Origin: Psammoneis japonica
Lineage: Eukaryota
Direction: 5' to 3'
DNA: 64,000 bases
Assembly (NCBI GenBank): GCA_008632985.1
Contig: QPGO01000199.1
Span: 62,001-126,000 of the forward strand
Below are positions 1 through 64,000 of the stretch, piece after piece (the first letter of the stretch is position 1; every line of letters starts with the position of its first letter). Both the position numbers and the translations under genes were made by a program. Under the pieces are notes generated by a model, which was not told the origin of the DNA, did no database searches, and saw nothing but the letters and a program-made list of their open reading frames with translations.

Positions 1-3000
1 CACCTCAAAACTCATGCTTTTCCACCAGGGCTGACAGATGAAAATGCTGACTTTCTGTTTCAGTGGGCCAAGACAACAAAAATCTTGCTGTTGTGTGGGG
101 TGCATGGGTTGAGAAGCTGACAAAGGCATTTGTGCCAGATGGGCCTCATTGGCTGGCATTTTTTGTGGTGTTTTCTGTGTGGCCAGAAGTTTGTGTGTCC
201 ACAGTGTGCAAAGTGCTTGTGGCACTGCCTTTGCAATGAACTCTTCTCATCAGACCACACAGGCCAATGGCTGTTGCAAAGTGGTTGTCTGTCCCCCTTT
301 CACAAAGTCTGTTGAGAAAACAGATGCTTTTGGTGCTCTTCAACTGGGGTGCTCTCATCACTGTTGCATGGATGACATTGGCATTGAATGTGCCCATGTC
401 CACACAAGCCTGTTCACCACCAAAAAACATGTGCTCTGAAAAAACATGTTGTCTCAACTGTGATCAGAATTTCAAACTGCTGACTGTGACAAACCGACAT
501 TGTGCTCTGTGCTCCAATTCAAACTGCTGACTGTGACAAACAGACACAGTGCCAAGCATGACAACAACAAACCACAAACTTTGTTGGCAGTCTTGCAAAC
601 AAACTGCAAGAGTGTGGCTGCATGAGTGGCCATGATTGGGAGGAGCTCAATGTTTCTGAGGGTCTCATGTTGCAAGCTGTGGTTGATGAATGCAAAAATG
701 AGGAGAAATGCTGAAAGAGATGCTGCTGCAGTGCGTGACAGACTGCTGCCATGACACCTTGACAATGGCTTGAAGAGCCAAAATGTGGTGCATTTCACAA
801 AGAAGTCTCTTCCTCTGATGCAGAGAGGAATCTGAGAGAGCAATGATGACAAGTGGTGCTTGTCACAGGACTGGAACCAGAGATGGAGGCAAGAATGCAC
901 ATCTTTGAGCAGCTGAGTTTTGTGCCATGCTGTTGGGCAACATCTGGGTGAGTTGCTCAAGGAACCACATGGCAGCTTGGTGGGTGGCAACCAGATGCCA
1001 GTGGCACAGTCTAATGACAGGGGAGCCACAGAAGTTGAGAGTTGGATGGAGGGAGATGCAAGCACAGCTTGGTGCTCAGCTGCTTGAGGATGATGCTCAG
1101 AGCTCAGGCAGAAAATGGCGGGCCTGGCAGGCAGCATTGGATGAAGCCCTCCAGCTGCAGAAAGGCGCGCCATTTGCTGGGGTCATTGCGAGACACCAGC
1201 ATGTTTTGGGATGGGCAGCCACAGCAGAGGTCAAGTGAAGAAGAGAGAGGGGGAGAGTGTGGTGCAAAAGACAGGGTTGGCATCAAAAACCTCCCTGCAA
1301 ATCTCACAAGAGCACTCATTAAAAACGTTGATGAGGTCAAGGGTGAAAAAGGAGTGTGTTGGAATTTCTTCATCCAAGCAGCAGCAGCAGCCAAGGCAGT
1401 TGAGGCCACCTTTGGTGGCTGCCATCCCTGAGAATTGTCTGTCTCTGGGAGGAGGGAGCAGAGGCAAGGGCAGGAGCCTTGGCAGTCATGGCAAAAGTGC
1501 CTTGACACACTGGGTGGCCATGGGGCGCAACTTGTTGGGGTTTGTTTGGTCTCTGTGTGGCGCCAGCACCAGATGGACAAAGCAGCTGGCTGGCATGAGC
1601 AGGCTGATCTCATCAGGGGGGCCGCCAAGCTGGCTTGAGCCAGGAGAATGAGCTGATTGAGTGTTGCAAAGCAGGGCCTTGTTTTGGATTTGAGGGTGGT
1701 GCAGAGACTTTCAAGAGGGGGCACAGGCCTGGAGTGCATGTCAGCAGCAGAGTCGACGCAACAGTGTGCCTGGCTTGCACACTTGCTGAGAGCTGCCAGG
1801 AGAAGAGCTGCTCATCTGGCATTTGAAGGGTGGGCAATTCGGGGAGGGCACAGGGATTGTGTGATGGGATGCGAACGGGGCATCATGGCATGGCTTGGGG
1901 GCATCGACAAGCAAAGAGCGGACAGACAGGCAGACGTTCACTTCTAAAAAGCGAGGGACGACATGGAAACCGCAAACGCACACACCCAAAAAATTTGGCG
2001 CGCGATGTTCTCGTGTTCCGCTTTGCGTGTTCGTTGCTTCCATGATGCTCCATGCACTGCACACACAAATGAACGAGAGAAAAATCGTGTCACCTTGAAC
2101 TTGATGCCGGATCCATCCTTCACCTCTTTCTCAACAACAACATCCATCTCGTTCGCATCAAGCATTGATGAAATTTTGACAGACATGAAGCACTTCAGTC
2201 TTCTCATTCTTGTTTCGACTCTTGCCAAGTCCATCAATGCTTTTGCGGGGGTGAGCACTCGCCCTTTTGCCGCTCATCATTCCCAGGCACCTCGGCCAAA
2301 ATTGATCCTCATTGGCGGGAGTCCTGGTGCTGGCAAATCAACTTTTGGCATGAGAGCGTGGCACTCGATCAGGGCATGCTGAGGTGCACATCTGCCGATG
2401 CAGTTCAAGCTGTCATGAGATCTTTTGTCAGAGAGGGTGTTAGTCCAGCCCTTCATTGTTCTTCCTGCGAACCATCGGGAGAAGATGACAACCCCGTCAA
2501 GAGCTGGAAAAAGACTTGCACAGTGCTGGAGGCGAGTTTGAGCAGTCTGGCTCTTGACGCCATTGAACGAGGCCAGAGCCTGGTGCTAGAGGGAGTGCAC
2601 ACAATGCCATCGTCCGACTTGATTGAACTGTGGGAAGCAAGCGGTGGAGTTGCGATTGGGTGTCTCTTGACCATCGCTGACGAAGAGGGGCACAAGGGAC
2701 AGCTGCACCGCCGTGGCCCAATGACTGGAAAGGATGCGCCAGAGGAGAAAAAGATCAAGTCCTTTGAGCGGATTCGAGCTGTTCAGGATGAGATGATGGC
2801 TCTCGCTCAAGCTTCCAAGAATTGGGTCCTTGTCGAACAGAATCTTGCGCCCAATCCGCTCGACATCATCCAGTCAAAAATTCTGGATTCCACTCTAGAA
2901 GCAACCAACTCTGGTGTGCCAACCCTCGAAGAATTGTCTCACTTGGAGCAGCATTTGGCACAAGTGGAGGAGGAAATGGATTTGGCGCCAACCGAGGAAG

Positions 3001-3090
3001 CATCGGAGGAAGATGTGCCTGGCGATGGTGTTCATCGCGAAGGAGCTTCATTCTGAGATCATGCTTTGAAAATGTGTGCAGGAATGCATG
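1..3090. other. TpA-depleted (hypermutated) block 1
   Basis: TA dinucleotides are almost absent. CG is also nearly absent in about 1-1000 but present from about 1750 onward. Overlapping Tyr-free, Cys/His-rich ORFs occur in all frames. TA resumes at about 3095 (gctagtctagctacc). Confidence 0.85.
2185..3056 (+). pseudogene. P-loop kinase-like (2-phosphoglycerate-kinase-like) protein with N-terminal signal peptide, TpA-mutated and frameshifted
   Basis: MKHFSLLILVSTLAKSINAF leader, Walker A LILIGGSPGAGKSTFG, frameshift near 2355, then ALDQG..C.S.D.V.AVMRSF...SPALH.SS and SLVLEGVH motifs. The protein contains no Tyr. Confidence 0.7.
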
Positions 3091-4594
3091 GTGCTAGTCT
3101 AGCTACCTTATGTGTAAAAGCGACCCTAACGCTGCCTAAAATCAATGTGTGTCAGCATCAATGCTCCTGCTCCGACAAGTCCCTGCAAAATGCAGCGGGA
3201 GAGAAGAATCATTTGTTCTGTCTCAGAGAGGAGATTTCCTGACCATCTGTCACTGTTGTCATTGCATGCAATGCAAGACACATTTTTTGGAAACATAAAT
3301 GCCATTGCATTCCTTCTCTCTAGTCTACTCTCTAGTCTCTAGAGAGCCTGCCGCAAAAAGGAAACAGGCTCTCGCACGTTTACCAGGACCAGACCGGCGG
3401 AGAGACACAAATCAGTCACGAAACGGTTGACACTCGTGACTGACTTCTCAAAGACCAGCGATAGACAGCAGATTGAAGATGGCAGATGCCATTGCGACCA
3501 ATTGCGACGATGTTGTAGTTGTAAATTGTGTGGCAATTCTCAACAGCGAACGAAACGAAGACTTGTTTTGCAACGGAACGGGCTTTATCAATTACCATGG
3601 CATTGCAAGAATCGTAATGCAATGATAAAGTGAGTTTGCTACTCTACGGGAGAGAGCATGACTGTTGTTGAAGCTCGGCAGGATTGTTCATTGCGTACCG
3701 GTACTCATTTCTCTTTGTGCCTACGTTCGCACTAGATTCCTCTCTCGATAACGAACGCCCCAACGGTTGCGGTGCTTCGACTAAAGACAGAACCAAAGGT
3801 GACGGATTTAGGAATGTGTGCGATTGAATGCAATGGAAAATCAAATGGAAGACAATTGGTGTAACAGTGGCGACGAAATAAATCGGGCCTGACAATCTTA
3901 CAACGCAATTACTTGAATACAAGAACGCGGAAAAGAAAAAAAGTTAGGAACAAAGAGTCGAGTCCGCACAAAGCAAGCGCAAGATGATCGAATGCAGATG
4001 GTTCATTCGCAATCACTGACGTGGGCATTGTACAATTCCTGGTGCCAAAGCTGGTGCAGATCCCACAAGTCGTTCGATGCAGAAACCTAACACTCTCGCA
4101 AATCTCCATACTCTCACAGTCACGACATTATCGCCTATAAAGAGCAAAAGACCCAACAATAACTCTCTTGAAGACTCCTGTTGTGATCGAAACTAAGGGA
4201 AAAATCGCGTTGTCTCCCTAACGAGGGTGCTGACTTGATGAACAAAATAAGAACTCTGGAATTGATAGATTGAAAATAAGCAACAGCGCATCTACAATTG
4301 GCACTTCCACGTCTGCTGGAGAAGCAACAGCGGAAAGTGATGGAAGTGAGACTAGCTAGAACACCGAACAGAACGTTGCAGTCCCAGCATACTGCGACAC
4401 CTCGTGACAAATATGCAGGCTAACGAGAATGTCCACAACAAAAACAGCAGTTACGGGATCGACTCTAGCCTCGAGAGTCACCGAATAAGCTTGACGAAAT
4501 GGCTGGAGAAATCATTATGTATGATCTTTGAGGATACTGATTAAAGCGAGAGTCAGTCCAGGTCGAGTGTGCTGAGAACTCTTCTGGCGACGGC

Positions 4595-5947
4595 TTGAAG
4601 CCATCGCGTCTGAATCAATGGATCGAGAAGATTTACAAGAAAATGAGCCTTTCAGAAGCGACTCGTACCAAACTCAATAAGCACAGCAAAAGTAGAAGGG
4701 GACATTCCAATTTAAACGCACGTGCTGTCTCTCCACCCAGCAGCCGCAGCGACGGCTCATCACCGAGCCCTGCTTCTGCTTACAGTAGAGCGAGCCAATA
4801 ACATCATGATGCGGAGCTCACGGCTGTGTGAGATTCAAATGAAGGCACAACAGACAGCACGGATGATCAAAGCATCACTCTAAGTTGTTTCTCTTTCACA
4901 ACTGAAGCGGGATTTCTCATACCTGGATTTCAGCGGACAAGTGGCTGTCGAACGCGGAACAATGTAGAGTACTTGGAAAGGCATCTCGGGGGTGCCACCC
5001 CCGGAGATATCTCTGCTGTCGTCTCCTCTGGTGACGTTAAATCTGCACAGCAACTTAACTCAAAAATAGCAGAGACGACGGGCATAGTTTCTTACAAGAG
5101 TTGACGAACCTGCGTCCCTTTCCAGTTTGCCAAGCTGACGTATTTGCTTGTCCTGGACGTTTCAAACTTGGGCTACTTGGGAGAGTTCAAACGAAAGGTA
5201 CTTCAGGGATTGCACGTTGTAAAAGACCTTCGGAATCGGCGGGAACTACTTCAATAGTCGAATTGGATTGGCAAGGCCAAGTCTCTCGAGTACCTTCGCG
5301 TTGAAAACGCAGGCATTACTTGCTCCTTCTACAGACATTATGAGTACTTCTCCCACGAAAAACACCCCGAGTAAGAAGCTCGTTTTCCCTGAAGAAGTCC
5401 CAGCGTTGTCAACGAAACGCAGAAAGAAGAGATCAACGCCCAAAAGGTTATGGATATGTTTCCCTCTGCTAAAAAGCTTATGGGAATGGACTTGGGAGAC
5501 TTGGCTTCTGCTCTTACTACGGCGTCTGTAAAACAGAATGATTTGAAATTTGAGAAGGATGTGTTGGAGTTAGCCATAAATCATCACTCCCCATTGGTTG
5601 AAAAGCGTGTTAATCCGCTCACCACCCAGACTGCCAAAGTGCATCCGCCACGGGCGCCGCATCCGACAAAATTTGGCTGAACGTGAGTTAAGCGGGTTGC
5701 TCAGCAAAAGAGACAAGTACTTCAATGACTTGGACCCGTCGGGTGGATTGCCATCCGAGATTTGTCGCCCATGACCTTTATGCAACAAAAGGCATTGGGT
5801 AAGTCCTTCCGTTCATCTCTGTGGTCGCTACGGACGATTCAGAGCACCGGGATTCCTCCCATGCCAGGAGCGCTGCCGAATACTCATATGAGTCGGGAAG
5901 TCTGTCTGGAAACTGTTCCACCACTTACTTCTTCAAACTTCTGTTGA
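4595..5947 (+). pseudogene. Fragmented hypothetical coding region
   Basis: Several adjacent protein-like ORF pieces (4595-4801, 5268-5531, 5450-5680). No recognisable domain. Confidence 0.2.
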
Positions 5948-6073
5948 CCAAAAGCAACAGCGACAGCTGACATTGCACGCTTCTCCTCTACGGCCCTTCA
6001 ACAACCTCGAAAAGATACGGGACAGCTAAGAACGGTTGAATCCAGTGCCGTAAGGTGTTATCAGGTTTGCTGG

Positions 6074-8089
6074 TTAATTGCTGGCGGTCCCGTTTGTGTG
6101 CTCTGTTTGTTTCCAAGTTGAAAGTGCAGTGGACACCTTGCAGCTTCTTTCATAGCTATGGAGGTAAATCCCAATACAGGCGATTGGTATGATGCTGCTT
6201 CGGAATCGGCGGGTCTGGCGAAACAAGCTCTCTAAGCGTCTTTGGGTATGAACGGCGCTTGGGTCTTGTGACCGCTCCTTAACCGTGGAGGAAAAGAAAC
6301 TGCCTCCTACTCTTTCGCTCATTCTTGATCATCGGTCCCGAGATTCAGAGCGCTTCCTTTTCAAGAGAGCGAGACAGTCGGCCAGAACAGATATCGAATC
6401 CTCCACAATGCAATGATTGAGAAGCGCAATCTCGTGATTCCTTCCCATAAGATCTAGAAATCCTCGCTTCAGCAGGCGACGAAGGACCGAGACGAAACCT
6501 TGCAATGACGATAATTTCTTTAAGGCAGTTTGATCCCGAAACATGACGGCGTCAATGAGGGAGCCTGACATATATCGCTGTCGAGCAGACAAAAATAGTC
6601 TTTCTTGCCGAGAGAGATAAGTTGCTAGCAACTCACAAGCTCTGCTTGCAATCCTGGTTGCTTCTGAGTGTCCTGAAATACTTGTCAGAGCTACTGAAAG
6701 GTAAAGCATCGCCGAAAGAGTCATGGGATGACAAAGCGGCAAGTGATGCTCACATCCTGCTACCAAAGTATGAAGAATATCATTGGACTTAAACCCATCG
6801 CCACGCTCCATGTGTAGACAAGCAATTCGAGACATGATGTCGTACGGGCGTTCCGTAGTTCGGTCAAGCGTGCTAACCAACCATCATTCCCACTGAAATC
6901 GCTTGATTCGCAACGTCAAGACATCGTGAAAGCGCCATCTCGCACCTAATTTCAATTCCAACTCCTTTCCTTTTCGAGACTTGCTCCCTTTGTTTCTAGC
7001 TGCACGAAACTTCGAAAGACAGTTTTTAAAAATAGCCAGGTCGCGCGGATTGTGGTGACCGTCTTTTGAAACGAACGTTGTGATGGTGTCCACTTCGTCA
7101 TCTTGCCAAGGCTATAGCAGCAATGTTGGTGACAACGCCCCTTGAAGAACCCAACGGTGGCCGTTGCTTTACCTTCTTCGCTTGTGTCGACGCAATATGT
7201 TTCATATCAGTATCTCCTGTTGCAGAATCATCGCTAGGCTTATTACTGGTTCTGGAAGATGCTGCCGCAGCAGCGGCGGCTGCGGCGATGCCACCAATGG
7301 GGGGTTCGGTGCTCCTTCTCTTACGACGAGATGCCGCCGCCACAGCAATAACCCCCGCCAGCGATAAAGGGAGGTGTGGCAGAACCAAGAGCTTTCTGTA
7401 GCTTCTTAATCATCTTTTCTGTACCAGTAGATGGTTCAAGGACTTCAACATGCGATTTCGCGTCGTCGGGCTTTCGTGAAGCATTCTCCCCTTCTGTTGG
7501 GAGGTGAAGTTAAAGTGGCAGTAGTGGCACGTGAAGGAGCACACGGTGATGGCTGCTTTGCCCATGGTGCTTTCGATGCAGAATGTACGTCACCAGCACT
7601 TTCATGATCGAGATGCTTCTTCTTAGCTTTCAAACGTGAAGCCGCTGCAGCAACCGCCGCTATTCCCCCACCGGTGGGTTTGGTTGACGGTTGACGTCGA
7701 CAGCAGTGGTAGCGTTTGCTGACGGACCCGTCGGAGACGCATGCGTTGCTTTCTGTGGCTCCGACAAAACATCCTGGGCACCACTGTTTTCGTCATCGCG
7801 GCAGCTGCAGCAATACCCCCGACAGAGATTAAGGGAGGCAGGGAAGAAACTAGATCACCCTGTCGCTCGTCAACAGTCACTGCTTCTGCTGGTTCAGAGA
7901 TTCCGGTACGTTCGCTGGGCTCTCTAGTGCTGCTTCATCCTTCGCTGTGAACGGTGGGGCGTCTGATGGTAAAGGCAAGCACGCGAGGCAGCTAAATGTG
8001 TCGAGTTTCCACAAGGCCTCCAGCTGTACGCAAAATTCAGATTGGAATATTTTCCGCATTGACAATCCAGATGTGGAATTTACCCGCAC
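6074..8089 (-). pseudogene. Interrupted hypothetical protein gene (low-complexity N-terminal part, helical C-terminal part)
   Basis: Chain of minus-strand ORFs (7877-8089, 7623-7880, 7445-7633, 7098-7388, 6884-7093, 6329-6880, 6074-6322) separated by TGA stops and frameshifts. Confidence 0.4.
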
Positions 8090-8264
8090 TGGGTGCCGTT
8101 GTTATCTGCACACTCCGACAATTCAACCGGTGTAGCCGCGTTTCGGAAGCAGAACATACACTATTAAGCTGGTGACGATACCATGGCACATATGCAGGCA
8201 AACAAAGAAACGTTGCAAAGCTTACTTTGAGGTCGCAAAGGCCTTGCGTTGGCGCCGTTAATGG

Positions 8265-9650: not shown

Positions 9651-9967
9651 TGCCCAATGGCGCCAGGAGATAGTTGATAATGTAGATGTTATACTGTTAG
9701 ATGCTCGAATTGTGAGACGAGATAGAACAGATCTCTCAGAGCTACTCTCTCGGAGATCTCGTGAAATGTGTAGAACGTAGTACTTGAAGCAGTGATCAGA
9801 AACCGAACCCAGACACACACAATAAGTCATTGAAAAGACTTATGGTGTTTAGGATAAGTCATTGAAATGACTTATAGAGAACACGGAGAACATTCTGAAG
9901 AACTCTGATGTATATGGATAAGACACGCACACGATACACTTACGGACAGACACATACACCCACAGCA
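9651..9967 (-). repeat. 3' LTR of gypsy element (largely unmutated)
   Basis: Direct repeat of 14357-14673, preceded on the minus strand by the PPT. Contains 23 TpA. Confidence 0.95.
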
Positions 9968-9980
9968 CTCGCTTCCCCAA
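9968..9980 (-). promoter_or_regulatory. Polypurine tract of gypsy element
   Basis: Minus strand ttggggaagcgag lies immediately before the TG of the 3' LTR. Confidence 0.8.
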
Positions 9981-9989
9981 CTGGACAGT

Positions 9990-12900
9990 TTAGAAGACAG
10001 GGTGAAGACGACGGATATTGATCCGTTCAGTGACGTTGGGAGAGCGCTGGATGGTGACTGTACCGTTGGTATGAATACGTACGATGCGAAAAGGACCCTC
10101 TTTAGGGTTTAACTTGCGTTGGACGTCCTTGGTGGTCACATAAACTTGATCACCGACCTTGTAATCGTAAGGTAAACGGTTGGCATTTTCACGTGCGTTG
10201 TTGCGTAGGACGTTTTGAGCGCGACGTTTATTGATAAATTTCCAATTAGCCAGATATGTCGCAGAAATGACCATGTCACGGCCGAAGACAAACTGAGCAG
10301 GAGTGGACATAAGGGCTGTATGGTAGGTACTGCGTAGAGCCCATGCGACGGATTGAAGTACACCTTCGATTGTTGAATCGTCAAAAGGTCTTGAGCTGAG
10401 ATCCATAGATCGGATGGAATCGCTGATGACTTGGTGGATGCGCTCGACAATCGCGTTTGCTTGTGGATTTTTAACGGTTGTAGGCTTGGGCTTAACTCCG
10501 TAGCTGTCAAGTAAGCCGGTAAATTCAGACGTGAATTCCGGTCCGTTGTCATAAATAACGGACTCGGGTCGCGGATAACGACAGAACCATACCCGATCTA
10601 CGATTAGTGAGATGTTTTCGGAGGTCTTGGAACTGTATGATGATAACTCGGGCCAACGAGTAGCAACGTCGATCATAGAGACGGCTTTGATAGATCGGTC
10701 AATGCCGCTAATATCGGTAAATGTCCAGGGCCCAAAGAGATCGGCTTGCATAACTTGCCACGGTTTGTACACGACATCTGGTGGCGGTAATTCGCCGTAC
10801 TGTTTCACGGTGCGTTTTTGTTTTTGACAAATTTGGCATTCACGAACGAAACGGCGAACCAATCCTTGCATGTTTCGAATGTAGAAGTGGGAAGCAAGAG
10901 TAAGGTAGGTGCGATTAGCTCCAGGATGACAGAGAGAATCGTGATACCAGCGTAACACGGCTGGGAACAAGGTGGATGGAAGGACGATCTTGTCGTTCCG
11001 TAGAATGATACGATGTTTCTGAAACTGATGGCTTGCATAAATGGAAGAGGTTGTCTTGCGAAGCTGAAGAGACTTGTCGGCGGCTTGATGTTCCGCAATA
11101 CGGTCATAGGTTACTGGAAATTCATTTTCAGAGAGTTCCAGAGTCATGGCTTCTTCAAAGTCGTCAGTAGAGACGTCGATGACTGGATGGCGACTCAAAA
11201 AGTCGGCGATGATGTTGTTTTTGCCAGGACAATATTCAAAAGTGTAATCATACTCTTCCAATAAGAGACGCCAACGTTTGACGCGTTCCGACTTAAACCT
11301 GTCAAAGGTTAAGTTTTTGTGGTCGGTCTTGGCATGTACTCGATATCCAAATAGGATGTTACGAAACGCATTCATTGTTTCGACGATGGATGGTAATTCC
11401 TTCTCCATAGTAGTATAATTGCGTTGAGCTCTGGATAGTTTGCGACTGTAGAATGCAATGGGCCACTCGCCGTCTTCAAATATCTGAGTTATGACGGCGC
11501 CGAGTTGATAATCGCTCGCGTCGGTATAGACATGGAAGTCGCGACCGAAATCAGGGAAGCGTAATAGAACTTGGCGAGCAATGCTTTTTTTCATAGCTTG
11601 AAAAGCTTGTTCTTCGACATCGGTCCACTTGAACTTGATTTTAGGAGAAACCATAGCCGATAGAGGTGCCATGGTGTGGCTCTTGCGGTGCCATAATTTC
11701 TTATAAAAATTGACGAACCCATTAAACGATCTGAGCTGACTTTTGTTCTTGGGAGAAGCAAAACGAAGGATGGGAATGATCTTTTCCTTCTGAGGTGTGA
11801 TGCCCTTTCTCGTGATATGATATCCTAAGAAGTCAACCTCAGGAGCAGCAAGAAAAGTGCCTTCAATGTGTGCTCGAAGGTTGCTCTCATCGAGTCGACG
11901 AAGCACGAGCTCGATTCGTTGGAGGTGCTGAGCGAAAGTTGATTTTGTAAACAAAAGAATGTTATCGAAGAAAGCACACATGTCTTCCATATCGCCAAAG
12001 TGTCGATTGACAAAGGCTTGGAAGATATCACTCGAAGGCATGGCTCCTTGAGGGAGTCGAAGGTAGCAATATTTGCCCCACGGCAAGATGATAGCACAGA
12101 GTTTGCTCGACTCTCGGTCGAGTACGAAATGACAGTAACCACGGTTGAGATCGAAACAAGTGGCATGCGTAAATCCGTTGATTTTCCAAATCATATCATC
12201 AGGATTTGGTATTGGATGAGGATGGCGAATGAGACATGAGTTGAGGTACCGTAAGTCGGTCAAGAAACGGACTCCGCCGTTTTTCTTTGGTCGGAATAAA
12301 CATGGCGCGCCCCACTCGGAAGTAACATCACGAGTAATAACGCCAATGTTTTCAAGTTCATCGACTTCTTTTCTCGCGATAGGATAAAGGGGTTGAGGTA
12401 TGGTATAAGCCCTAGCACAATAAGGCTTAGAGCCAGGCTTGACTCGGAGTTTGATCGGAGGACCAGGAACTGCACCGAGGGTTCCATCAAATAAATTGGG
12501 ATAGCGACCGAATAATTCCAATAGGTCGTCTTTTTGACTTTCAGTCAAATGGTTGCATCCCGACACCATCTTCTGATAGTTATGCTTGTCATACTCGTTG
12601 CTAGAAATAGCACGGGTCTGACGTTGAATAGCAGCTAGCATAAAATCAGGCAAAGCTGCATCGGCAGGATCGATATTTATAATTTCGTCTCGATCCATTG
12701 ATCCTTCTGGACGCATGGGAATAGCAACATCGTCCCATATAACACTCTTAGTCTTGAAATTGAAGATAAGACCAAGGCTTTGACATGTTCGGCGGCCAAT
12801 AACGATGTCATGGCGCCCGATTGCCTTCTCTTCGATATAAGCATCATTAGATACTTTTTTTGCACTCGTAAATTCTGGGAGTTTGATTTCAATAGTGGCA

Positions 12901-14261
12901 AGCTGTGAAGACTTGACTGCTTTATATCTTCCGTTGACTTTCGTATCCACAGTCTTGATAGAATGAGGAATAGACTTGAGCGCGTCACGCTTGACGAAAT
13001 TACCACGCGCTCCAGTGTCGAGTAGGCCAAGATAGTATTTATGTTGGCCTGTCTCGCGATTAAGAAACTGAATCGTCGCTTCCGTAGTCAATACAGGGTC
13101 CGGTACTTTCAATTGGGACTCCCGAATGGCATTCATCTCTTCAAACATATCGGAGATTTCGTTGATGTCTTGTGACGATACGCTATCAGCGTCGTTCGGA
13201 TTCGAGCGGAATTGAACCTGAGTCGAACGAGTAGGTTGATTCTGAACTTGATTGTTCTCTTCTGGAAGACGAGAACGGCTCCTTGTATTATACTGATGAC
13301 TTGGCTGAGTCCTCTGACTGTTCTGATTACGGTTGGAGCCTTGCTGTTGTTGACCGCGGTTAGTGCGGTTTTGTTGATACTGTTCGCGTTCTCGGCGAAT
13401 AATGTTACACTCCCTCCCACCGGGATGTACAACACCATGTATGGGACATGTGTTATTTGACTGTTGATTTCTTCTGTTGGAATTGGCACCTTGATTCCTG
13501 TAGTTACGATTCGTCTGGTTTCCACCACGACGATTGGGTGAATTATTTCGATTGTTCCGGCGATTCCCGCCAGAATTGTCTCGAGGATTGTTTGGCTCGA
13601 TACGTCGCAAGCCTTCATAGTACTGGACCTGTTGGTTGAGGCCCAATCCTCGAATATTGGCCTTGGTTTGGTCATGAATCCATGATTTGGGACCGGATTT
13701 TCTAATAACAACGACGAGTTCCGCTTCCGTGAACTTCGGAATTGGATCAACGTCATCTTCGTCCGTTGGTAAGGGTATAAATGGGATGAGATCGTTGATC
13801 TGGCGGACACGTTGAAGAAATGACTGTACGGTGTCATTACGTGGTTTCTTGAGGGACTGTAACCAATCCTTGGTGTCTACCGCAATGTCACGGGTCATCT
13901 TGGTTAAGATGTAATCTTCGCGTGCCGCAAGAAAAGTGTCTTGATCTCGATCTTCGTACTGATCGACAACAGTGTTCCAGTCATCCATCGGCTGGCCTGT
14001 CAAAAGGCGGTCGATTAGACGGAAACGTGGAATTCCCTCTGCAACGTTGAGGATAGCAGAGATTTCTTCATAACGCTTGAAGAAAGCGAGAGTGTCTTCA
14101 GGGTCATCACTGTCCAACACACGTGCTTCTATGGTGGACTTGAGTCCATCAGGATCATTTGGGTCGACTGGAGACTCGAAAGACACAAAACGATCTTTAC
14201 GACGTTCTTCGCTTGTTCGTTCCGGGCGAACAAGACGGAAAGGACAGTTTTCGGCTGACAT
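9990..14261 (-). CDS. Gypsy gag-pol polyprotein (gag, aspartic protease, RT, RNase H, integrase), 1423 aa
   Basis: Protease LLDTGA; RT RFLTDLRYLN and LPWGKYCYLRLPQG; RNase H VYTDASDYQLG and TDHKNL; integrase HDSLCHPG..CQIC, DNGPEF, NPQANAIVER. Domain order PR-RT-RH-IN. Confidence 0.95.
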   Translation of the reverse strand: MSAENCPFRLVRPERTSEERRKDRFVSFESPVDPNDPDGLKSTIEARVLDSDDPEDTLAFFKRYEEISAILNVAEGIPRFRLIDRLLTGQPMDDWNTVVDQYEDRDQDTFLAAREDYILTKMTRDIAVDTKDWLQSLKKPRNDTVQSFLQRVRQINDLIPFIPLPTDEDDVDPIPKFTEAELVVVIRKSGPKSWIHDQTKANIRGLGLNQQVQYYEGLRRIEPNNPRDNSGGNRRNNRNNSPNRRGGNQTNRNYRNQGANSNRRNQQSNNTCPIHGVVHPGGRECNIIRREREQYQQNRTNRGQQQQGSNRNQNSQRTQPSHQYNTRSRSRLPEENNQVQNQPTRSTQVQFRSNPNDADSVSSQDINEISDMFEEMNAIRESQLKVPDPVLTTEATIQFLNRETGQHKYYLGLLDTGARGNFVKRDALKSIPHSIKTVDTKVNGRYKAVKSSQLATIEIKLPEFTSAKKVSNDAYIEEKAIGRHDIVIGRRTCQSLGLIFNFKTKSVIWDDVAIPMRPEGSMDRDEIINIDPADAALPDFMLAAIQRQTRAISSNEYDKHNYQKMVSGCNHLTESQKDDLLELFGRYPNLFDGTLGAVPGPPIKLRVKPGSKPYCARAYTIPQPLYPIARKEVDELENIGVITRDVTSEWGAPCLFRPKKNGGVRFLTDLRYLNSCLIRHPHPIPNPDDMIWKINGFTHATCFDLNRGYCHFVLDRESSKLCAIILPWGKYCYLRLPQGAMPSSDIFQAFVNRHFGDMEDMCAFFDNILLFTKSTFAQHLQRIELVLRRLDESNLRAHIEGTFLAAPEVDFLGYHITRKGITPQKEKIIPILRFASPKNKSQLRSFNGFVNFYKKLWHRKSHTMAPLSAMVSPKIKFKWTDVEEQAFQAMKKSIARQVLLRFPDFGRDFHVYTDASDYQLGAVITQIFEDGEWPIAFYSRKLSRAQRNYTTMEKELPSIVETMNAFRNILFGYRVHAKTDHKNLTFDRFKSERVKRWRLLLEEYDYTFEYCPGKNNIIADFLSRHPVIDVSTDDFEEAMTLELSENEFPVTYDRIAEHQAADKSLQLRKTTSSIYASHQFQKHRIILRNDKIVLPSTLFPAVLRWYHDSLCHPGANRTYLTLASHFYIRNMQGLVRRFVRECQICQKQKRTVKQYGELPPPDVVYKPWQVMQADLFGPWTFTDISGIDRSIKAVSMIDVATRWPELSSYSSKTSENISLIVDRVWFCRYPRPESVIYDNGPEFTSEFTGLLDSYGVKPKPTTVKNPQANAIVERIHQVISDSIRSMDLSSRPFDDSTIEGVLQSVAWALRSTYHTALMSTPAQFVFGRDMVISATYLANWKFINKRRAQNVLRNNARENANRLPYDYKVGDQVYVTTKDVQRKLNPKEGPFRIVRIHTNGTVTIQRSPNVTERINIRRLHPVF

Positions 14262-14356
14262 GTTAGGTCAGGGCAATTCGCTAGACTTGCTGTCGACAAT
14301 GAGGGCTTCGCAGAAGCAAAGAACAAGTTGGATTTAGATGGGGAGTAAATTTGCTG

Positions 14357-14673
14357 TGCCCAATGGCGCCAGGAGACAGTTGACAATGTAGATGTTGTGC
14401 TGTTGGATGCTCGAATTGTGAGACGAGATGGAACAGATCTCTCAGAGCTGCTCTCTCGGAGATCTCGTAAAATGTGCAGAATGCAGCACTTGAAGCAGCG
14501 ATCAGAAACTGAACCCAGACACACACAATGAGTCATTGAAAAGACTCACGGTGTTTGGGATGAGTCATTGAAATGACTCACAGAGAACACGGAGAACATT
14601 CTGAAGAACTCTGATGCACATGGATGAGATGCGCGCACGATGCACTTGCGGACAGACACACACACCCACAGCA
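14357..14673 (-). repeat. 5' LTR of gypsy element (TpA-hypermutated)
   Basis: Aligns without gaps to 9651-9967 with 30 transitions. Only 2 TpA remain. Confidence 0.95.
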
Positions 14674-15480
14674 CATTCCGGCTTGGCGAACAACAAACAC
14701 ATCGTGCCGCAAACAACGAGTCGAAAAAGAGAGACAACACACCATCAAGCAAAATGAGTTGTGGAATGCCAAACAAATGCAAGGTCTCAATCCAGAGGAA
14801 GGGCGAGCCATCCTTGGCGACAACGGCACTCAGGCTTGGCAAACAACAAGCACATGGTGCGAGACGACGAGTTGTGAGCGAAAAACGAGCGCGGATTCTC
14901 AGAGATTTTGAGTCATGACCGTTGCTAAATTTCTCAATCACTGTCACTTTTGTGCATCCTCGCAGAGTTGTCACAGTGATTTCGCATGCACCGGAGGCAT
15001 GTGAACAGCAGCGAGCTTTTTTTCAGGATCGCCTCACAGACCCCAAGACCCATGTGTCGGTGGAAAGCTCTCGATGAGCTGAACAAGGTCAAATGCATGT
15101 TGCATTGGTCGGAGTGAGCAGAAAGCGAGCGTTTGTCGCTGAAAATTTGGCACTTGTTTGAAGAAAAACAACGGTCACATTCGCCTTTTTCCAATTGATT
15201 TTTGTGTTCACACACAAACATCAATCGCATCATAAATTTGACATTTAATCCGGAGTTCCAAAATCTCATCCAGGATTGCATGCTGTGCAAATTGCTTGTG
15301 GGACACCTTGTTTCTGTGCTTTGCTCTTGCTCTGCAGCTCTTGCAACTGAAGATGTCGAAAAAAGGCTTTGGTCAGTCGCTGCAACTGGGTGTGTTTTAG
15401 TGACTGACGAAAGCCGATTTTCGATGAGCATTTTTGGTGTCGAGATTTTTCAACAGCAAAAATAACTTCGCTGCTGTTTA
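14370..15480. other. TpA-depleted block 2
   Basis: Covers the gypsy 5' LTR, the flanking DNA and a MITE. TA is very rare while CG is largely retained. Confidence 0.85.
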
Positions 15481-15984: not shown

Positions 15985-16068
15985 TACTGATTCCTACGCA
16001 TACACTTTACGATAACCGCCCGGGCTCCAGGACGCGCGACACTTGCGCACTGCGCGCCTCACCTCCTA

Positions 16069-16287
16069 CAGTATGGGGGGCGTCTTTGGAAGTGAGATCG
16101 TCGAAGGCAGTCTGATCGCCAGTGCGTTTGGGGGTTTTCCCAGTACATTTTGTACGCGCAAGAAAACACGTAGGATCTGTCCACAGGTCCCAAATACCCA
16201 ATCGCACTGATTGACAGACTGTTTTAGTACAAATTCTACGTAACTTTCTTCAACAGTCTCACTTCCGAAGACGTCACCCAAGTACTG
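16069..16287. mobile_element. Tc1/mariner-pogo-type MITE (CAGTA ends, TA TSD)
   Basis: ta|cagta..cgtctttggaagtgaga at the left end and tctcacttccgaagacg..tactg|ta at the right end. Confidence 0.65.
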
Positions 16288-16809
16288 TACCGCGCCGCAG
16301 AAATTATGGAAACGTCTGTTCCCCGGAAATCCTGCGCCTTTTCTCCCTACTCTAGCTAGAGTATTGAAACAACGAGAGTCAGTCTATATGTATGTACAAA
16401 CATACTTCTACCTAAGAAGATTATGCCATCGACAGTTATGCTTCAATGATACATTCATGTGTGACCGATGCGCCGACGCGTGGGCATTGTTTGTATCCTG
16501 CTTCGTCTGCATACTACTCTAGGCCATTTCAAAAATTGAAAAAAGACATGCTCGGTGTCACTTATGGTCCAACGCCTCTTTTTGGCAATGTGTGTCGCGT
16601 CAATCCAGCATGTGCTGCTTCACTCCAAAGCGCAACTTGTCGTTGACACCCGTAAAATGAGTACCGGCATGTGCGAGAAGCCCAAGTTTGAGGACAGGTG
16701 TAAGGTCAAATTTCAAAATTTTGAGTCTTGAACTCACAAAGTCATGCACCGAGGGCAGAGTTGAGAACAAAGCAAAAGTTTCTCACAATATCTTGAGGAC
16801 AAGATTGAA

Positions 16810-22332: not shown

Positions 22333-24419
22333 ATTGGGTCGAATGACGGGCCCGTAGACTAGCAGGAGATGCCGATTCAATGACGAAAAAATGTTGCTAC
22401 ACAACCGTAAGTTCCATTGCTATGTACGTTAGTGATAAATCTGTTTGTGATGTGCTATCTAGTTCGAATCGTTGTCATCACTGTCGTTGCCTTCGTCTTC
22501 CTCAAGATCAAACAGATCCACAGTGCCTTTCTTTTGTTGTAAACACACCTCCAATCCGACGTGAGTCACTCATCTTCGTTCTTCCTGTTTTCGACGACGA
22601 ATGACTATCGGTAGCTGCGATTCCAAATCGACTGTTTGCAGATGTCGCGCTGTGTATGTGTACATGTATAAAACGAGAGCAACAAGGTGTGAGGATTTGC
22701 TGCACGCTGGTAGAAGTTACAATACATACCATAGGTTGAACTTACTCGTGGCAAACACCGTCCATCATCGACTGTGGAGTCGTCACCTTTTTCTTGTATG
22801 GGCATGGGCTGAACGTTGACCACGCCGTGTGCATCCGACCAGTCGGACACCAATGTACCGCCCAAGATTTCTTTCTGCTATGATGGACTGGGAGCACTTG
22901 GAACACAGACACAACCGCAACTCCGTGGATACTGTTTCGTCAATGTTGCGGTGCACCAAAAGGGTCCTCTTTACCAGAACCACTATCCGAACCTGACGAC
23001 AGAGAGCTCTTGACGTCATCCCCACAATTACAGATTTCCTAGACGTGGCAGTTTAGATAGAGGTAGGCCGAAGCGACTCTTAAGGTAGTAGTCCATGGTA
23101 GCTTCTTCGATACATGCTCTCCGCTGGCACTGTCTAACTAAGCGGAGTACAAACAAGTCGGATAGAATCGCTTTGTCCCAAAGACTTGTGACACCGATTG
23201 CAATAATAGCAGCCCAATGACGGCTTAGCGAAAGAGCCTTGTCGGTACTATTATTGAGAAGGTGTGGAAAGAAGAATCCAGTCTATCGTCCGTTTGAGCG
23301 GCCACGTCGTTTTCGATTCCGATTCTTGTGGGGATCACAACAGCGCCACTTGCCGATGGCAAATTGAAACAAATTCATGTCACAGACTCTGTAACCACAA
23401 ACTCTGTAAGAGAACGCCTGGGCTGTTCAAGGACTTCATCGGCAAGGCGATGTACACTGCTAGCCGCGTTAACGATTGTGGGCGTTTCAATCTGAGATTT
23501 CTCTTGGCCTCCTGTGACTAAAACAAATGAGATCAGTAAAGCTCGTGTGAGCTACAACCAAGCTTAACAGCAACCACTCTTACAAACGACAGACCCGCAA
23601 CACAAGCTCACAGTTCAAAAATCTTCCTCGGCTGAATTTGGAGAACGGGGACGCAGTGCATGAGAACAGTCGCCAAGCTTCTAGAAAAAGTGCTCCTAAT
23701 TTTGGAGCCGCACCACAAACGCAAAAAAGTGTTGTTAGACACATTGTTGCATTGATGGCTTGGTTCGCTCACCAACAGTGGCAATCCCAACAAAGATTCA
23801 GTGATGCTTGCGCTGGTGCTTTCTTCCCCAAAGCACTCTGCGCTTGTTGAAAATGGTCAGCGGCACATGCCTTTTTTTGGAGTTTCCTCACAAGGCCAAG
23901 TCCTTCAATGCACCCTTGGCCTTGAAATATGACGCAACTGGCCTCAGCAATGTCATCAAATCTCTCAAACCGAAGTGGAAATCTGCCAGGAGGGCAATCC
24001 AAAATTGAGTCGTCACCAAGAGTGCATCACTGGTGCATGCCAACTCCTCAACAGCCTTGGGTTTCTTCATGTCAGTGGCCAGAGCCTTGCTGCATGTGTC
24101 TCCAACACGGCAAACAAAAAAAAAAGCTTGGGATTCTGCTTCAGCAACCACACTGCAGAGTGAGTGCTCCAATTGCCACACCAGCCAATCATTCACTTGA
24201 ACAATCCCCCAGAGAATTGATTCATGGCAGCAGATGATGCAGGCACATCATTGACACTCTGACCAGTGTGAGCTGAAACAAAACCTGGTGCACATGATCT
24301 TGTTTCACTGTGCACCTTTCAAGCACCAGTGGCTGAATGAGGCTCAGCAATTGTGCATCATCAAGTGGATGAAACACTGCCCACAGGGATGCCATGCAAT
24401 CTTGTCTGATCATTTTTGA

Positions 24420-25230
24420 GTGGCTTGCACATGCTTTGCAATTTTGCAATGTGGACAATTTGACAGTGATGTCAGTGGGCACAAAGCACAGGCATGTGCA
24501 TGGACATCCTGCTTGTCATCACAAAAGGCACGTTGGATGACCACATCAAGAAGGTGGGCGCCATGCTTCCTTGAGAAGCTTGAAGACACTGGACTTCAGG
24601 TCAGCACCTCAACATTGCTGTTCTGTGGAGTGGGCTTGTTCTTTGACTCTCAAGAAAAAAGGTTGAGAAATGTTGCCAGGCCAAAAAACAAGAAAGAACT
24701 TTGGTCATTCAGTGGCACAGTGAGCTCCTGCTGAGATGCATGGTTGCGCAGATTGAACATTTTGGCACCCCTTGCAAGATTTGCAGGCTGGGCCATGAAA
24801 TGGGAGGTGACTTCAGGCCATTGAAAGAGAAGTGCTTCTAAACTGTCAAGTGAGCAAAACATCAGAAGAGACACTTCTTGCATCTGGGTTTTGACAAACT
24901 GTTTGAAATCTTTGCCATTGGCTGCATTCAAACACACAACCCACAGCAGCAACATCTCAAAACAAAAACCTGTTACACTTTGCAGCAACAGACAGCTGAG
25001 CAGTGCTCAGCTGACTTGTGCAACAGCAGAGCAAGAATCATTTGCAATTTTGACACTCTGAAAAGTTCAGATCCACTTTCTGCAGCTGTGGTTGTTGCAC
25101 CATTGTGCACACAGATCACAAAAACTTCATGTGCAGAGCACTCAAAGCTTGGCATGAAAAGAATGCAGGCCTGAGCTGAGATGTGTAATTCCATCCCAAT
25201 TTAATTGCAGGCTGCTGTCTCAGCCATCTC
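24420..25230 (+). mobile_element. Heavily decayed gypsy pol relic (RT/RNase H/integrase remnants)
   Basis: ILLVITKGTLDDHIKKVGAML, PKNKKELWSFSGTVSSC*DAW.RR..ILAPL and HLGFDKLFEIF match the typical gypsy motifs YxDDLLxITKGT..DHL, P..K.ELRSFLG.VNYY and YPDF..PFEI. Confidence 0.65.
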
Positions 25231-25609
25231 AACCCAAGCCAGGCCAATTTTTGACTCTAAAAAATGTTGTCCAACAGTTGCAAAAACACACCTGAAGTGC
25301 ATGATCTTAACAAGGCCTTTGCAAATGAAGCAAGGGAGATTGCAATGACTCCCACCAGGTTCAACAAAAGCCAACTCAAACAGCCAAAAAATGGTCACCT
25401 GTTGCAAGACAGTTGCATTTTGCATGACTGTTCTGCACAGAAATTCTGTGAAGGAGAAATGAGAAAATGTCCAACAGACAGCTGGTTTGTTGATGAAACA
25501 AAATTTGAGTCACAAAATCAATCTCCTGTGTGAGAAGCTTCTGGTGAAAAAATGTGGCAGAGATTGTCCCTTTGAAAGCCTTTTGCATTTTTCAGAGATG
25601 TCATTGTCA

Positions 25610-27000
25610 GAAAAACCTCTGGTGGAAAAGTGTGAGTCAACAGAAAAAGTCACTTTTGCCAATGTTTTTGCACTTGCAACTTGAGCACATTCTTCCTTCA
25701 TGTCCCAAAAAATGACCTCAAAGGGGCAAGCACAGTTTGGGTGGCTTGCTTGACTGCAGTTGTGGCGGAAAAGCTGAGTTGGGGCAGGAGGCCAAGAAAC
25801 CTGGTGGCAAAGTGTCAGCCAGGAGAAACAAAGTCACTTCCACCACACATTGTCTGCACTCTCAGCATCTGAGTGCACTCTCCATGTCCCAAGAAACAAG
25901 CTCAAAGGGTTGATCATAGACTGGGTGGTTTGTTTGGCTGTGCTGCAGCTGTGGCGGCAGAGCAGCCTCTGGTGGGTGGGCAGATGTGCAGCTGGAGGCA
26001 AAGTGTCAAACCACAGAAAAAGTCACTTCTGCAAACATGTTTGCAGTTTTGGCTTCTGAGCACACTCCTTGTGTCCCAAGAAACATGCACAGAGGGTTGG
26101 GCACAGCTTGGGTGGCTTGCTCAGCTGCAACTGTGGTGGCAGTGTGAAATCTGGGCAGCAGGCAGAAAAGCAGTGTGTGGTGGGAAAGTGCCAGTTGGCA
26201 GAAAAAGTCACTTCTGCCACATTGTTTGCATTTTCATCTTTTGAGCACACTTTTCCTGTCCAGAAGCATCTTGTCAAACAGTTGAGCACAGTTTGGGTGG
26301 CTTTGGTTGGCTGCAGTTGTGGTGGCAGAGCAGCCTCTGGGTGGGCAGAAACTGCTTGAGGGCAAGTGTCAAACCACAGAAAAGTCACTTGTGCCAATGC
26401 ATTTGCAGCCAAGGATTCTGAGCACACTCTTCATTTCCCAAGAAACAACTGCAAAGAATTCAGCACAGTTTGTGGGGCTTGCCTGACTGCAGCCATGGCA
26501 ACAAAGCAAAGTTTCAGCAGCAGGCAGAGAAGTCTGGTGTGTTGAACCTCAAAGGGTCAAGCAAAGATTGCGTGGCCTTGTTTGACTCCAATGGTGGCAG
26601 CACAGCAAAATCTGGGCAGCAGACAAAGACAAAGAAGGGTGGCAGCAAAATGTCAGTTGGCAGAAAACATCACTTCTCCCAAATTGTTTTCACTTCCAGC
26701 ATCTGAGCACACTCTTCATGTCCAAAGGCATCTTCTGAAATGGTTGAGCACCATTTGGGTGGCTTGCTTGATTGCAGCTGTGATGGCAGAGCAGCCTCTG
26801 GGTGGGCAGAAACCCTTGCAGGCAAAGTGTCAAACCTCAGGAAAAGTCACAACTGCCAATGAATTTGCAGTCTTGGCTTCTGAGCACTCTTCCAAAAAAT
26901 TGCTTTTGCCAAACTTTCTGCACTCTCAGCCACTGCTGAGCACACTCTTCATGTGCCAAGAAACATCATAAAATGGTTGAGCACAGCTTTGGTGGCTTGC
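25610..27000. repeat. Degenerate tandem repeat, unit about 185 bp, about 7 copies
   Basis: Recurrent ggcaaagtgtca..cagaaaa(a)gtcactt..ctgagcacactct..tgtcccaagaaac..gcacagtttgggtggcttg near 25620, 25805, 25995, 26180, 26360, 26645 and 26820. Confidence 0.8.
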
Positions 27001-28978
27001 TTGATGAACACGCCAAGGCTTGCTGCTGTGCATTGCAGCTTCATTCTTGGACTGGGGTGCACTGGGCACTGGAGTGTTGGCATTCTTTCCTCAGGTTTTC
27101 CTGCTTTTGAATTCATCATCTTGAACAAAGGCTCGGGCGAATCGAGTGAGACATGGCAAAAGATGTGTTGCATGTCATTTTTTGCATGATGTGGAGTGGG
27201 CGACAAATCAAGATCGTCGCAGCGATGTGGCAGAATGTTTTGGAAAGTCCACCAAAATGAGCTGTGACAAGTGTTGTCACACAATTGGATTGTCAGACAT
27301 GAGCACTTCCCAGTTTGTTTTGTGAGCACAACAGCTCTTGCTCCTGCAACCTCTGTCGGTTTCATGATTTGATTTCACAGGTTCTTGAATGCACTGAAAA
27401 AGCTTCAGGCCCACAGACCAACCACCATTTGTGTGCATCAAACATTGCCAAACATGAACATTTAATCCTGCTTGCTTGACACAGAATGTCATCTCAAGAC
27501 ACTGCTGTTGATGAACTCAAAAGGCTTTCATTGACATTCTCAAGGGCTTTCTCCACAGGGGCTCTGTTCTGCCAACTCCAAAAGGGCAGAGAAGACCAGC
27601 CACCACCTGCCATTCCAAGAGGAAATCCCATGGCTTTGGCAGCTGCAGAAAGCAGGCCACCAAAGTTGTTTGTTCTGGGGCTGGCTGCAATGACTGCAGT
27701 CAACACAAGAGTGATGTCAATTTTTTCTTCTGCCACTTTGAGACTCTTTGATTCATCATCTGCATTTCTGTGAGACAGAAGTTCACCACAGCATCTGCCT
27801 TTGTTGGGCACCAACTTTCTCTTTGTGCTGTGTTCATGACTCTCCACTGATGCTGTCACAAAAATGTGCACACAAAGGACCTTCAACTGGAGCACCAAGC
27901 ACCTGCAATTTGTGCTGCAGTGCAACAAATCAATTCCTTGGCAATTCACATGGCAACCAAGAACTCATCCCCCCCAAAAGCAGCTGATGGCTGCTTCCCT
28001 CTCTGCAAATTTTGCTGCCACATTGGCTGAGAGCCAAAAATGACAGGAGAGCACTCTGCACAAAAGCCAACATGGCTTCAGAAGCTTTTTTGTGTTGAAA
28101 CAGTGGCTGCAAGCTCTGGTGGCTGTTGCAACAAATCTCAGGGCTAAAATGCACATGGGGACACTTGCAAATGTTGAAAGCCCGGCTCTGCACCTGCTGG
28201 GGTTGGAGCAGGCCAGTTGGTGCTCCGAGCTGATGGCTGCTGGCTGGCCCACTTCTCTGGTGGTGGCTGGCTGGCCAGCAGTGTGCAGCCCTCACTTGGG
28301 GGTGTCAAGCTGAGTGCAACAAAGAGCTTGCTTAAGGCATTGGCATGTCATGGTGGAATGCACCCAGCTCTGCAACATTTTGTCTTGCCTTGCTGCTGAC
28401 AGAGGCAACAGTGATCACCAGAAAGAGGAGCACGGGCAGCTCGGACAAAAGAAGCAGCAAGGAAGCCAGCGGTGGTTTGTTGCCAGCACAGGCAACAATG
28501 AATTGAGAGGCATCAATTTTTCAGCACCTTTGGACAGGAGCAACAGATGTGTTTGACTGCAGATGCTTTGGAAGAAACAACAAGAGGCAGAGTTGTTGCC
28601 AGTGCGCGGAGCCTCGACGGGGACGATGGGGCGGTTCGTTCGGCACTGTAGCACGAATCGCGTGCGACGTTCCCTGTGCACTTTTTACGTACGAGAGAAT
28701 CAACGTGTTGTGTTTGTGCAGTGCGAAAAGCGTGGACGTGCAAAAAACTGCGCTCCATCTGTCACTTGCTTGTTGCTGCTTGTCTCTGCTTCAGCGGCTT
28801 CGGGTGCCTGGCTCTAGGAGCAGTGTTGTGTGTTGTTGCTGTCTGCTGTTGCTGCTGCTGTTGCTGAAACCAACCCATCATCATCGAAACAAACCAAGCC
28901 ACGTCTTCTAAAGATCGAAACTTTCAAAAGCAAGCCTTGTTGCAAAAAAAAAAAGCCGTTTGAGCAGTTTGATTGAAT

Positions 28979-45520: not shown

Positions 45521-46013
45521 GCCTCAAGAAATACAGCACCTCAAGACACCATCACGGAACACGGTACATTATACCTCAAGTTCGTCTCATTTCTTGTCAA
45601 GTGGTGCATGACTGTCCTCTCTGTACTGCAGCAAGGTTGCGGTGTGCGCTGGATGAGTTGAGACAGCGCCTCAAGAAATACAGCACCTCAAGACACCATC
45701 ACGGAACACGGTACATTATACCTCAAGTTCGTCTCATTTCTTGTCAAGTGGTGCATGACTGTCCTCTCTGTACTGCAGTAAGGTTGCGGTGTGCGCTGGA
45801 TTAGTTGAGACAGCGCCTCAAGAAATACAGCACCTCAAGACACCATCACGGAACACGGTACATTATACCTCAAGTTCGTCTCATTTCTTGTCAAGTGGTG
45901 CATGACTGTCCTCTCTTTACTGCAGTAAGGTTGCGGTGTGCGCTGGATGAGTTGAGACAGCGCCTCAAGAAATACAGCACCTCAAGACACCATCACGGAA
46001 CATAGTACATTAT
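45521..46013. repeat. 147-bp tandem repeat, about 3.3 near-identical copies
   Basis: Units start at 45521, 45668, 45815 and 45962 (gcctcaagaaatacagcacc...). Confidence 0.95.
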
Positions 46014-46178
46014 GTACGGTATCCATGCACATGATCGGCATACTTTCTTATAGGCTTGAGTGCCTTTTCAAGTGGAAGTCTTTACTGTAAGTAACCCAAA
46101 CCCCACCAAATGGATAGGGCAATCTGGAGCAGAGAGCGCTTTAGAGAAACCAACTGAGAGTGATCAAACAGAACGTGT

Positions 46179-51208: not shown

Positions 51209-51291
51209 CCACCATCACATTTCGTGCCGTCTGTTATCCCCCCTCCATCACGTTTCGTGCCGTCTGTTTTCCCCCCTCCATCACGTTTCGT
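51209..51291. repeat. 33-bp tandem repeat, about 2.5 copies, upstream of the transposase
   Basis: cc(a/t)ccatcac(a/g)tttcgtgccgtctgtt units. Confidence 0.8.
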
Positions 51292-51489
51292 CTTCGAGGT
51301 ATATATGATATTTGTGAATGTTTATTTATAAATGATAAGTTCGTCCCGTCAGAAGCCCTACGTAGACTGCCGTAAAATGCAGTACAAATTTTAACGGTGT
51401 TCGTACCACGCATGGCAACAGGCTCGCACGTAGATTTGTACCGGAGCTTGTACATCCTGATAGACTTATAAATCCTTGCCTACTCTAGA

Positions 51490-63900: not shown

Positions 63901-64000
63901 TCTTCCCGGATTCCGTGACAATCCAATGGCACATGTCTGATGCAACACACAGCTGCTGATAAGAGTCAATGTATCACGGCGACGTGTTGCAGCATTTAAA
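60970..64000 (-). mobile_element. Second Ty1/copia element (3' half, runs off the window), TpA-hypermutated
   Basis: RT DLENACLNAP, ALHGLKSSG, LVCVDDIL; RNase H FVDADHAG, QNTVESAMFG, NLADLFTK; PPT gagagga near 61226-61232; candidate 3' LTR about 60970-61225. Confidence 0.88.

Follow-up and report, generated by a model that had tools for sequence, protein, structure and literature searches.

The closest described counterpart of the process reported here is the TpA>TpG/CpA hypermutation of Bigelowiella natans, which was seen in mutation-accumulation lines to act on integrated NCLDV and virophage DNA (Mettrop et al., bioRxiv 10.64898/2026.01.13.699255). As that preprint describes it, the rate is raised ~1000-fold in some lines only. 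An adenine deaminase is proposed, for which an ADAT2-like protein is a candidate that is not demonstrated, and transposons are suggested as further targets, with no targeting mechanism given (bioRxiv 10.64898/2026.01.13.699255). Its main text makes no mention of diatom, trinucleotide or context, and its Table S2 may hold flanking context. In a literature search that took in few subscription papers, this account from an unrelated alga was the only published case of TpA hypermutation found, and no diatom report was found. The papers listed on 2-phosphoglycerate kinase and on duplication in diatoms offered nothing of use. Two further systems are relevant: RIP, which has been reported to leak from repeats into adjacent single-copy genes (Rouxel et al. 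2011, PMC3105345), and the DNMT5-dependent CG methylation reported to mark diatom transposons (Hoguin et al. 2023, PMC9998398).

Here, the target is a diatom host gene lying beside a repeat block that holds a Copia element, unlike the viral DNA struck in B. natans. The locus is in a 64,000-nucleotide stretch of contig C199 of Psammoneis japonica (the whole stretch is called the window); coordinates without a contig prefix are window positions, and C199, C1, C21, C47 and C7 are contigs of the same genome assembly. As in B. natans, where the reported clusters are TpA-poor and rich in CpA and TpG, the changes are TpA transitions on both strands confined to discrete regions. What this locus adds to the B. 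natans report, as far as the preprint describes it, is a paired intact copy that fixes the direction of change, a movable edge, CpG decay and a TAY preference. Conversely, rate and ongoing activity were measured in B. natans, whereas here the process is known from sequence comparison. The resemblance to RIP lies in the dense, dinucleotide-specific transitions over repeats and in the ~1.7 kb overrun into a gene in one copy. However, RIP is a C>T change, mostly CpA>TpA, which makes TpA, while here A>G removes TpA and no TA is gained; moreover, RIP answers duplication, and here the copy inside the domain alone was struck. Fungal RIP is premeiotic and is tied to the RID/DIM-2 methyltransferases. 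DNMT5-dependent CG methylation of diatom transposons would explain the 12 CpG changes in the gene and the decay of the block, but not the TA changes. The locus works like RIP leakage with the chemistry reversed, and is best classed with the B. natans process.

The gene and its elements are as follows.

2185..3056, plus strand: broken copy of a 2-phosphoglycerate-kinase-like P-loop kinase gene (own-genome DNA search, profile and homolog matches)
2185..2244, plus strand: hydrophobic N-terminus ending ...SINAF, signal-peptide-like (from the sequence; homologs have a similar hydrophobic stretch before AF)
2317..2343, plus strand: Walker A loop, in which Thr49 is changed to Ala by TA>TG (Thr in 119 of the 119 homologs that have the residue)
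2352..2353, plus strand: 2-nt insertion that shifts the frame (copy alignment; also in the X1 contig identical to the window)

An earlier note on this DNA had called the gene kinase-like, and the profile matches agree, placing it among P-loop kinases related to 2-phosphoglycerate kinase (NCBIfam PRK12337, E 1e-32; PRK04220, E 3e-28), although both scores are far under the curated cut-offs (113 vs 603 bits and 99 vs 343 bits for the equivalogs). It shares the Walker A motif and the kinase core with the archaeal/bacterial family (PRK12337, PRK04220 and PRK12339, E 1e-32 to 5e-12) but differs in its N-terminal leader and its sub-cut-off scores, and the substrate assignment is a predicted one. The leader (2185..2244) may be a targeting sequence, possibly for the plastid. 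There were 362 homologs at E<=1e-10, those with names being mostly diatoms, and a search by sequence for a solved structural relative found none. The kinase-like gene is in itself ordinary.

The earlier note had proposed a search for an unedited copy in the genome, and such a copy was found on C1 (L002:1599-2468), the sole other copy returned by a DNA search of the same genome. It has an open frame of 289 aa, the Walker A P-loop GSPGTGKST and 27 TA steps, and is 94% identical to the window copy, 52 of 870 aligned positions being different. A third, older paralog, found on C7 by protein search, has 64% identity, an open frame and a normal TA content. In the window copy, the frame that opens at ATG 2185 ends after 65 aa at a stop at 2380-2382 because of the 2-nt insertion at 2352-2353, and this copy is a pseudogene. 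Neither the frameshift, the CpG decay nor the pseudogene state had been mentioned in the earlier note; the four peptides that it quoted are all present, but owing to the insertion they are spread over two frames.

The broken gene contains exactly 3 TA steps in 872 nt (at 2441, 2587 and 2896; O/E 0.06), matching the approximate count of 3 in 870 bp given before. Control tiles of the same length (128 in all) had a median of 33; seven of them had 10 or fewer, all from a TA-poor block of C1, and outside that block 121 of 121 tiles had more than 10. Compared with C1, 24 of the 27 TA steps are changed (14 to TG, 9 to CA and 1 to CG) and none is gained, versus 13 of 150 changed in the duplicated control (p 3e-17) and 9 of 377 non-TA A/T sites changed in the gene itself. 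The differences from the intact copy are therefore concentrated in TA context, and the process does reach beyond transposons, both as had been suggested. Of the 52 differences, 25 fall within the 24 TA steps and 12 are CpG>TpG/CpA changes; nine more are A>G or T>C at non-TA sites, two TG/CA swaps account for four, and the last two are a G>A and a transversion. The A>G and T>C changes outside TA were also raised over the controls (9/377 vs 26/3821, p 0.003), with three of them adjoining TA changes, and so was CpG change (12/47 vs 14/247 in the control, p 1e-4), which suggests that this copy may have been methylated in the way diatom transposons are. The TA changes strike synonymous, upstream and downstream sites and lie on both strands.

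The direction of change was judged on 120 of the 362 homologs. The C1 residue, not that of the window, was favoured at 12 of the 13 non-synonymous TA-context changes, with votes (C1 residue to window residue) of 119:0 at T49, 118:0 at I64, 119:0 at T72, 102:0 at Y94 and 117:2 at I199. S44 was ambiguous (49:57), and the differences at S96 and V204, together with S44, look C1-derived or ambiguous. Near-invariant residues that have gone from the window copy are T49, I64, T70, T72, R74, R91, Y94 and D223. A host gene has been struck by TpA>TpG/CpA change, in a direction set by these 120 homologs; the reverse, a gain of TA by C1 through RIP, is ruled out by the same 12 of 13 sites. The ortholog alignment that the earlier note had called for hence supports the TA-loss direction it assumed, and three of the ancestral peptides it had reconstructed, QGIL.CIS.D, ALHRSSY and GVHI.P, fit C1 (QGILKCISTD, ALHRSSY and GVHIIP). 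The fourth, MKYF, was mistaken, since the intact copy also reads MKHF and therefore no descent from MKYF took place. Within ALHCSSC, Y>C (Y94) is a TA-context change as supposed, but R>C (R91C) is CGT>TGT, a CpG change. The absence of Tyr is true of the window copy but is a weak sign, as the intact copy has one Tyr only and 3 of the 120 homologs have none.

The surroundings of the gene divide into the following zones, none of which has a strand.

1..1850: last part of a repeat block poor in TA and CG, common to C1, that starts ~16 kb upstream of the window (base composition and comparison with C1)
1860..3056: inner extension of the mutated zone, in the window copy only (29 of 32 C1 TA steps changed)
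2030..2083: 54-bp stretch absent from C1, ~100 bp upstream of the ATG, with no TA (indel direction unpolarised)
3057..3610: outer shoulder (at 3057-3600, 14 of 29 TA steps are changed; the conversions end at 3604)
3601..8091: internal control, equally duplicated and unmutated (137 of 150 TA steps kept)
16066..16295: right junction, C1-like sequence ending near 16066 and C21-like backbone again from 16295

The same repeat block flanks both copies. On C1, TA steps resume ~325 bp upstream of the ATG, while in the window copy the edge of the mutated zone lies ~550 bp past the stop, ~1.7 kb farther than in C1. The zone is continuous with the block, takes in 5 of 5 TA steps upstream of the gene and 24 of 27 within it, and fades across 3057-3610; its outer part has a TG:CA ratio of 16:3 vs 12:10 inside (Fisher p 0.052, for a boundary picked post hoc). 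In the control at 3601-8091, seven TA steps became TG or CA and eight changes ran in the reverse direction, and a second duplicated control (C199:34144-38387) kept 120 of 127. Since the C1 gene and the ~8.5 kb of duplicated controls retain TA, duplication was not the trigger; position was. Of the two origins that the earlier note had offered, spreading from the adjacent repeat block fits these data, whereas a RIP-like targeting of the duplicated copy does not. Several stretches within 3500-7700 match other contigs at 70-85% and keep their TA steps, and repetition alone is therefore insufficient for being struck.

The sequence from C199:34144 to about window position 16066 is collinear with C1:275278-299331 (~24 kb), barring transposon insertions. 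C199 tracks C21 on both sides of this C1-like segment, and C47 farther on. Since C21 is uninterrupted across the insertion site, in both C21 copies seen, and the C1 flanks have no second copy in the assembly, the window copy is at a derived position. About 32 bp of C21-like sequence is absent at the junction. Neither terminal repeats (400 bp at each segment end) nor a target duplication were found, and transport of the 24-kb segment by a mobile element was rejected on these grounds. A plain allele on a collinear haplotig was also rejected, as the flanks differ, C199 following C21 on both sides and then C47. On balance we lean towards the window copy being an extra duplicate.

The Copia element (C199:49057-56068, ~7 kb, upstream of the window) has 276-bp LTRs that are 93% identical and a 5-bp target duplication. 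It is present in the C199 block only and absent from the C1 block. Genome-wide the element has at least 35 copies, TA-intact ones as well as TA-poor ones. Compared with two of the TA-intact copies, the element of the C199 block has lost 122 of 158 and 136 of 172 TA steps (77-79%), and either comparison shows 3 changes in reverse; rates were taken from these two copies, and the other three of the five compared, TA-poor themselves, were left out. Since this C199-only element is heavily TA-depleted, the mutator was active after the copies split. Its CpG loss is ~8%, and that of the gene 26%. The mutator outpaces CpG decay. The Copia insertion was considered as a trigger of the zone expansion and found unsupported, the gene having lost more CpG than the element. 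Among the other elements nearby is one of 7 kb that has a TNP-like transposase domain. Two copies of it, >99.5% identical, are found (C199:38388-45913 and window 44169-51302); one of them, of normal TA content, lies precisely where the TA-poor block begins on the left. A Gypsy-type element at 9651-14674, absent from the C1 copy, has an open 1425-aa frame, normal internal TA and LTRs that are 90.6% identical; the LTR at 14357-14674 alone is within a TA-poor patch (~14300-15400).

The TA steps that survive give a footprint. All three in the gene are YTAG, and survivors in the TA-poor blocks of C199 and C1 are 126 YTAR to 19 RTAY vs 738:1429 in the controls, a comparison confounded because coding controls avoid stop codons. 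The Copia pairs do not suffer from this, and in them TA was kept at 14 of 33 YTAR vs 4 of 51 RTAY (p 3e-4; second reference 13/30 vs 4/45, p 7e-4). Per-strand rates over the two TA-intact references were 0.51-0.57 for TAC, 0.39-0.41 for TAT, 0.27-0.30 for TAA and 0.27 for TAG. By preceding base, A>G occurred in Copia at 106 of 283 TA, 12 of 579 AA, 16 of 834 CA and 4 of 812 GA, together with 7 A/T transversions. Off-target A>G lay within 5 nt of a same-strand TA change in 7 of 32 events, vs 162 of 2193 (p 0.009, from 32 events only), a proportion above expectation, and near an opposite-strand TA change in 4 of 32 (p 0.32). No long strand-coordinated tracts were found (longest TG run, p 0.43; adjacent same-strand Copia changes, p 0.69). 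ADAR likes UAG, which is opposite to the footprint here. TadA has been reported to act on UACG, and evolved TadA to prefer TA/YAC (PMC12265680, PMC12703980). The footprint of TAC>TAT>TAA~TAG with weak same-strand bystanders would suit a TadA/ADAT-like DNA adenine deaminase, an attribution that we favour by a small degree. Among the 9 PF00383 matches of the genome are two TadA-like loci (on C38 and C26), which resemble ordinary housekeeping tRNA deaminases. Tandem dCMP-deaminase-like matches were seen on two contigs, L033/L036 (C41:505477-506590) and L034/L039 (C317).

Over 2284-2591, the contigs of read run X1 come in two versions: one, at depth 49.5, matches the window letter for letter and carries the insertion, and the other, at depth 52.3, has 25 other letters and a 2-nt gap; X1 may be the source sample of the assembly and is thus not independent support. 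Run X2 gave a single contig of 1026 nt that covers the gene with short flanks (2126-3145); its 63 differences from the window and its 3 gaps are those of the C1 copy. The X2 contigs (30 Mb in total, longest 16 kb) are transcript-like in shape and are not recorded as RNA; contigs indicate presence, not absence, and X2 says nothing on expression of the window copy. Run X3 had no cover over the region.

We propose, with a probability of roughly 0.7, that a position-guided A>G mutator acts on silent transposon domains, and that the edge of one such domain overran a spare gene copy and broke the gene. The mutator would work at the DNA level within silenced domains rich in transposons, turning the A of 5'-TA into G on one strand or the other and so giving TA>TG or TA>CA. 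The ~24 kb C1 segment, with its already TA-poor block as well as the gene, has also come to be placed within the C21-like sequence of C199, and in this copy the domain edge has moved: on C1 it is ~325 bp ahead of the ATG, and here it is ~550 bp beyond the stop codon. The gene would then have lost 24 of its 27 TA steps, lost CpG as methylated DNA does and acquired the frameshift; these changes are observed, whereas the methylation and the order of events are what the model supposes. It is likely that the duplication let the damage persist rather than triggering the mutation, the copy being presumably dispensable because C1 is intact and the 64%-identical C7 paralog is present. As to the chemistry, the likeliest would be that a TadA/ADAT-like enzyme deaminates adenine where the DNA is locally opened.

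A RIP-like process, sensing the duplication itself and mutating the duplicated gene, would account for the damage being in a second copy with 94% identity to C1. However, RIP strikes both duplicated copies over their whole duplicated length, while here one copy alone was struck, the ~8.5 kb of duplicated controls keep TA (137/150 and 120/127) and the mutated zone is continuous with the repeat block, making this explanation very improbable. It is less far-fetched, though in our view unlikely, that silencing came first, a promoter indel or the frameshift having ended expression so that the dead gene was then absorbed and struck by the same mutator. Both lesions exist, the 54-bp indel lying ~100 bp upstream of the ATG, and the zone approximates the transcription unit, fading ~550 bp behind it; yet the indel cannot be polarised, and the non-coding TA sites between block and gene were all changed too. 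Such an order of events is compatible with the position-guided mutator, and the two are not exclusive.

The status of the copy and the chemistry each have a rival as well. The window copy may be a translocated allele, one copy per haplotype, leaving the cell functionally hemizygous for the gene; this we hold to be possible but the less probable of the two origins. The equal depth of both versions in X1 (49.5 vs 52.3; 63.7 vs 63.3) with no third version would fit it, as would a background divergence that is similar to C1, C21 and C47 (2.5-4.4%), but equal depth is compatible with both models. Furthermore, the assembly contains one copy each of the C1 flanks, the C7 paralog and 5 of 6 deaminase-family loci. 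This suggests that the genome is mostly collapsed and that second copies diverging by 2.5% are paralogs. With regard to chemistry, error-prone synthesis or repair at TA, or the decay of a modified A or T, could replace deamination, and both the lack of a dedicated deaminase among the PF00383 matches of the genome and the absence of long strand-coordinated runs speak for it. We are doubtful of it, as the changes are almost purely transitions (7 A/T transversions only in Copia); polymerase eta at WA motifs would be expected to give far more AA changes and transversions, a pattern different from the low AA rate and few transversions seen. A sequencing or consensus artefact at modified bases, which has only its general possibility in its favour, is negligibly probable, given that the two versions are separate phased X1 contigs of equal depth and that the changes lie on both strands, are graded by context and occur alongside CpG decay and an indel. 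The TA loss is real, and is due neither to chance nor to artefact.

The locus represents a natural controlled experiment: a single block occurs in two copies with different edges, and long stretches of duplicated DNA were spared. It thereby separates position-guided from homology-guided targeting and shows that the process can destroy host genes. The enzyme class is narrowed down by the preference for flanking bases, which can be compared with the B. natans mutation list. Tyr-poor, Cys/His/Met-rich diatom gene models beside TA-poor blocks may be edited pseudogenes. More tentatively, it may be that diatoms own a natural editor of DNA adenines that is guided by chromatin and leaves a TadA-like footprint. 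Aimed by silent-domain position and not by homology, with edges that move by kilobases between copies, it would irreversibly erase redundant host genes inside. If so, an adenine editor would shape the loss of duplicated genes besides serving in genome defence.

Other sharply bounded blocks that are poor in TA and CG are found at 23950-28640 and 56500-64000, the former being shared with C47 near 300-305 kb. The whole C199 contig is a patchwork of C21-, C1-, C47- and C92-like segments with abrupt junctions and several TA-poor blocks.
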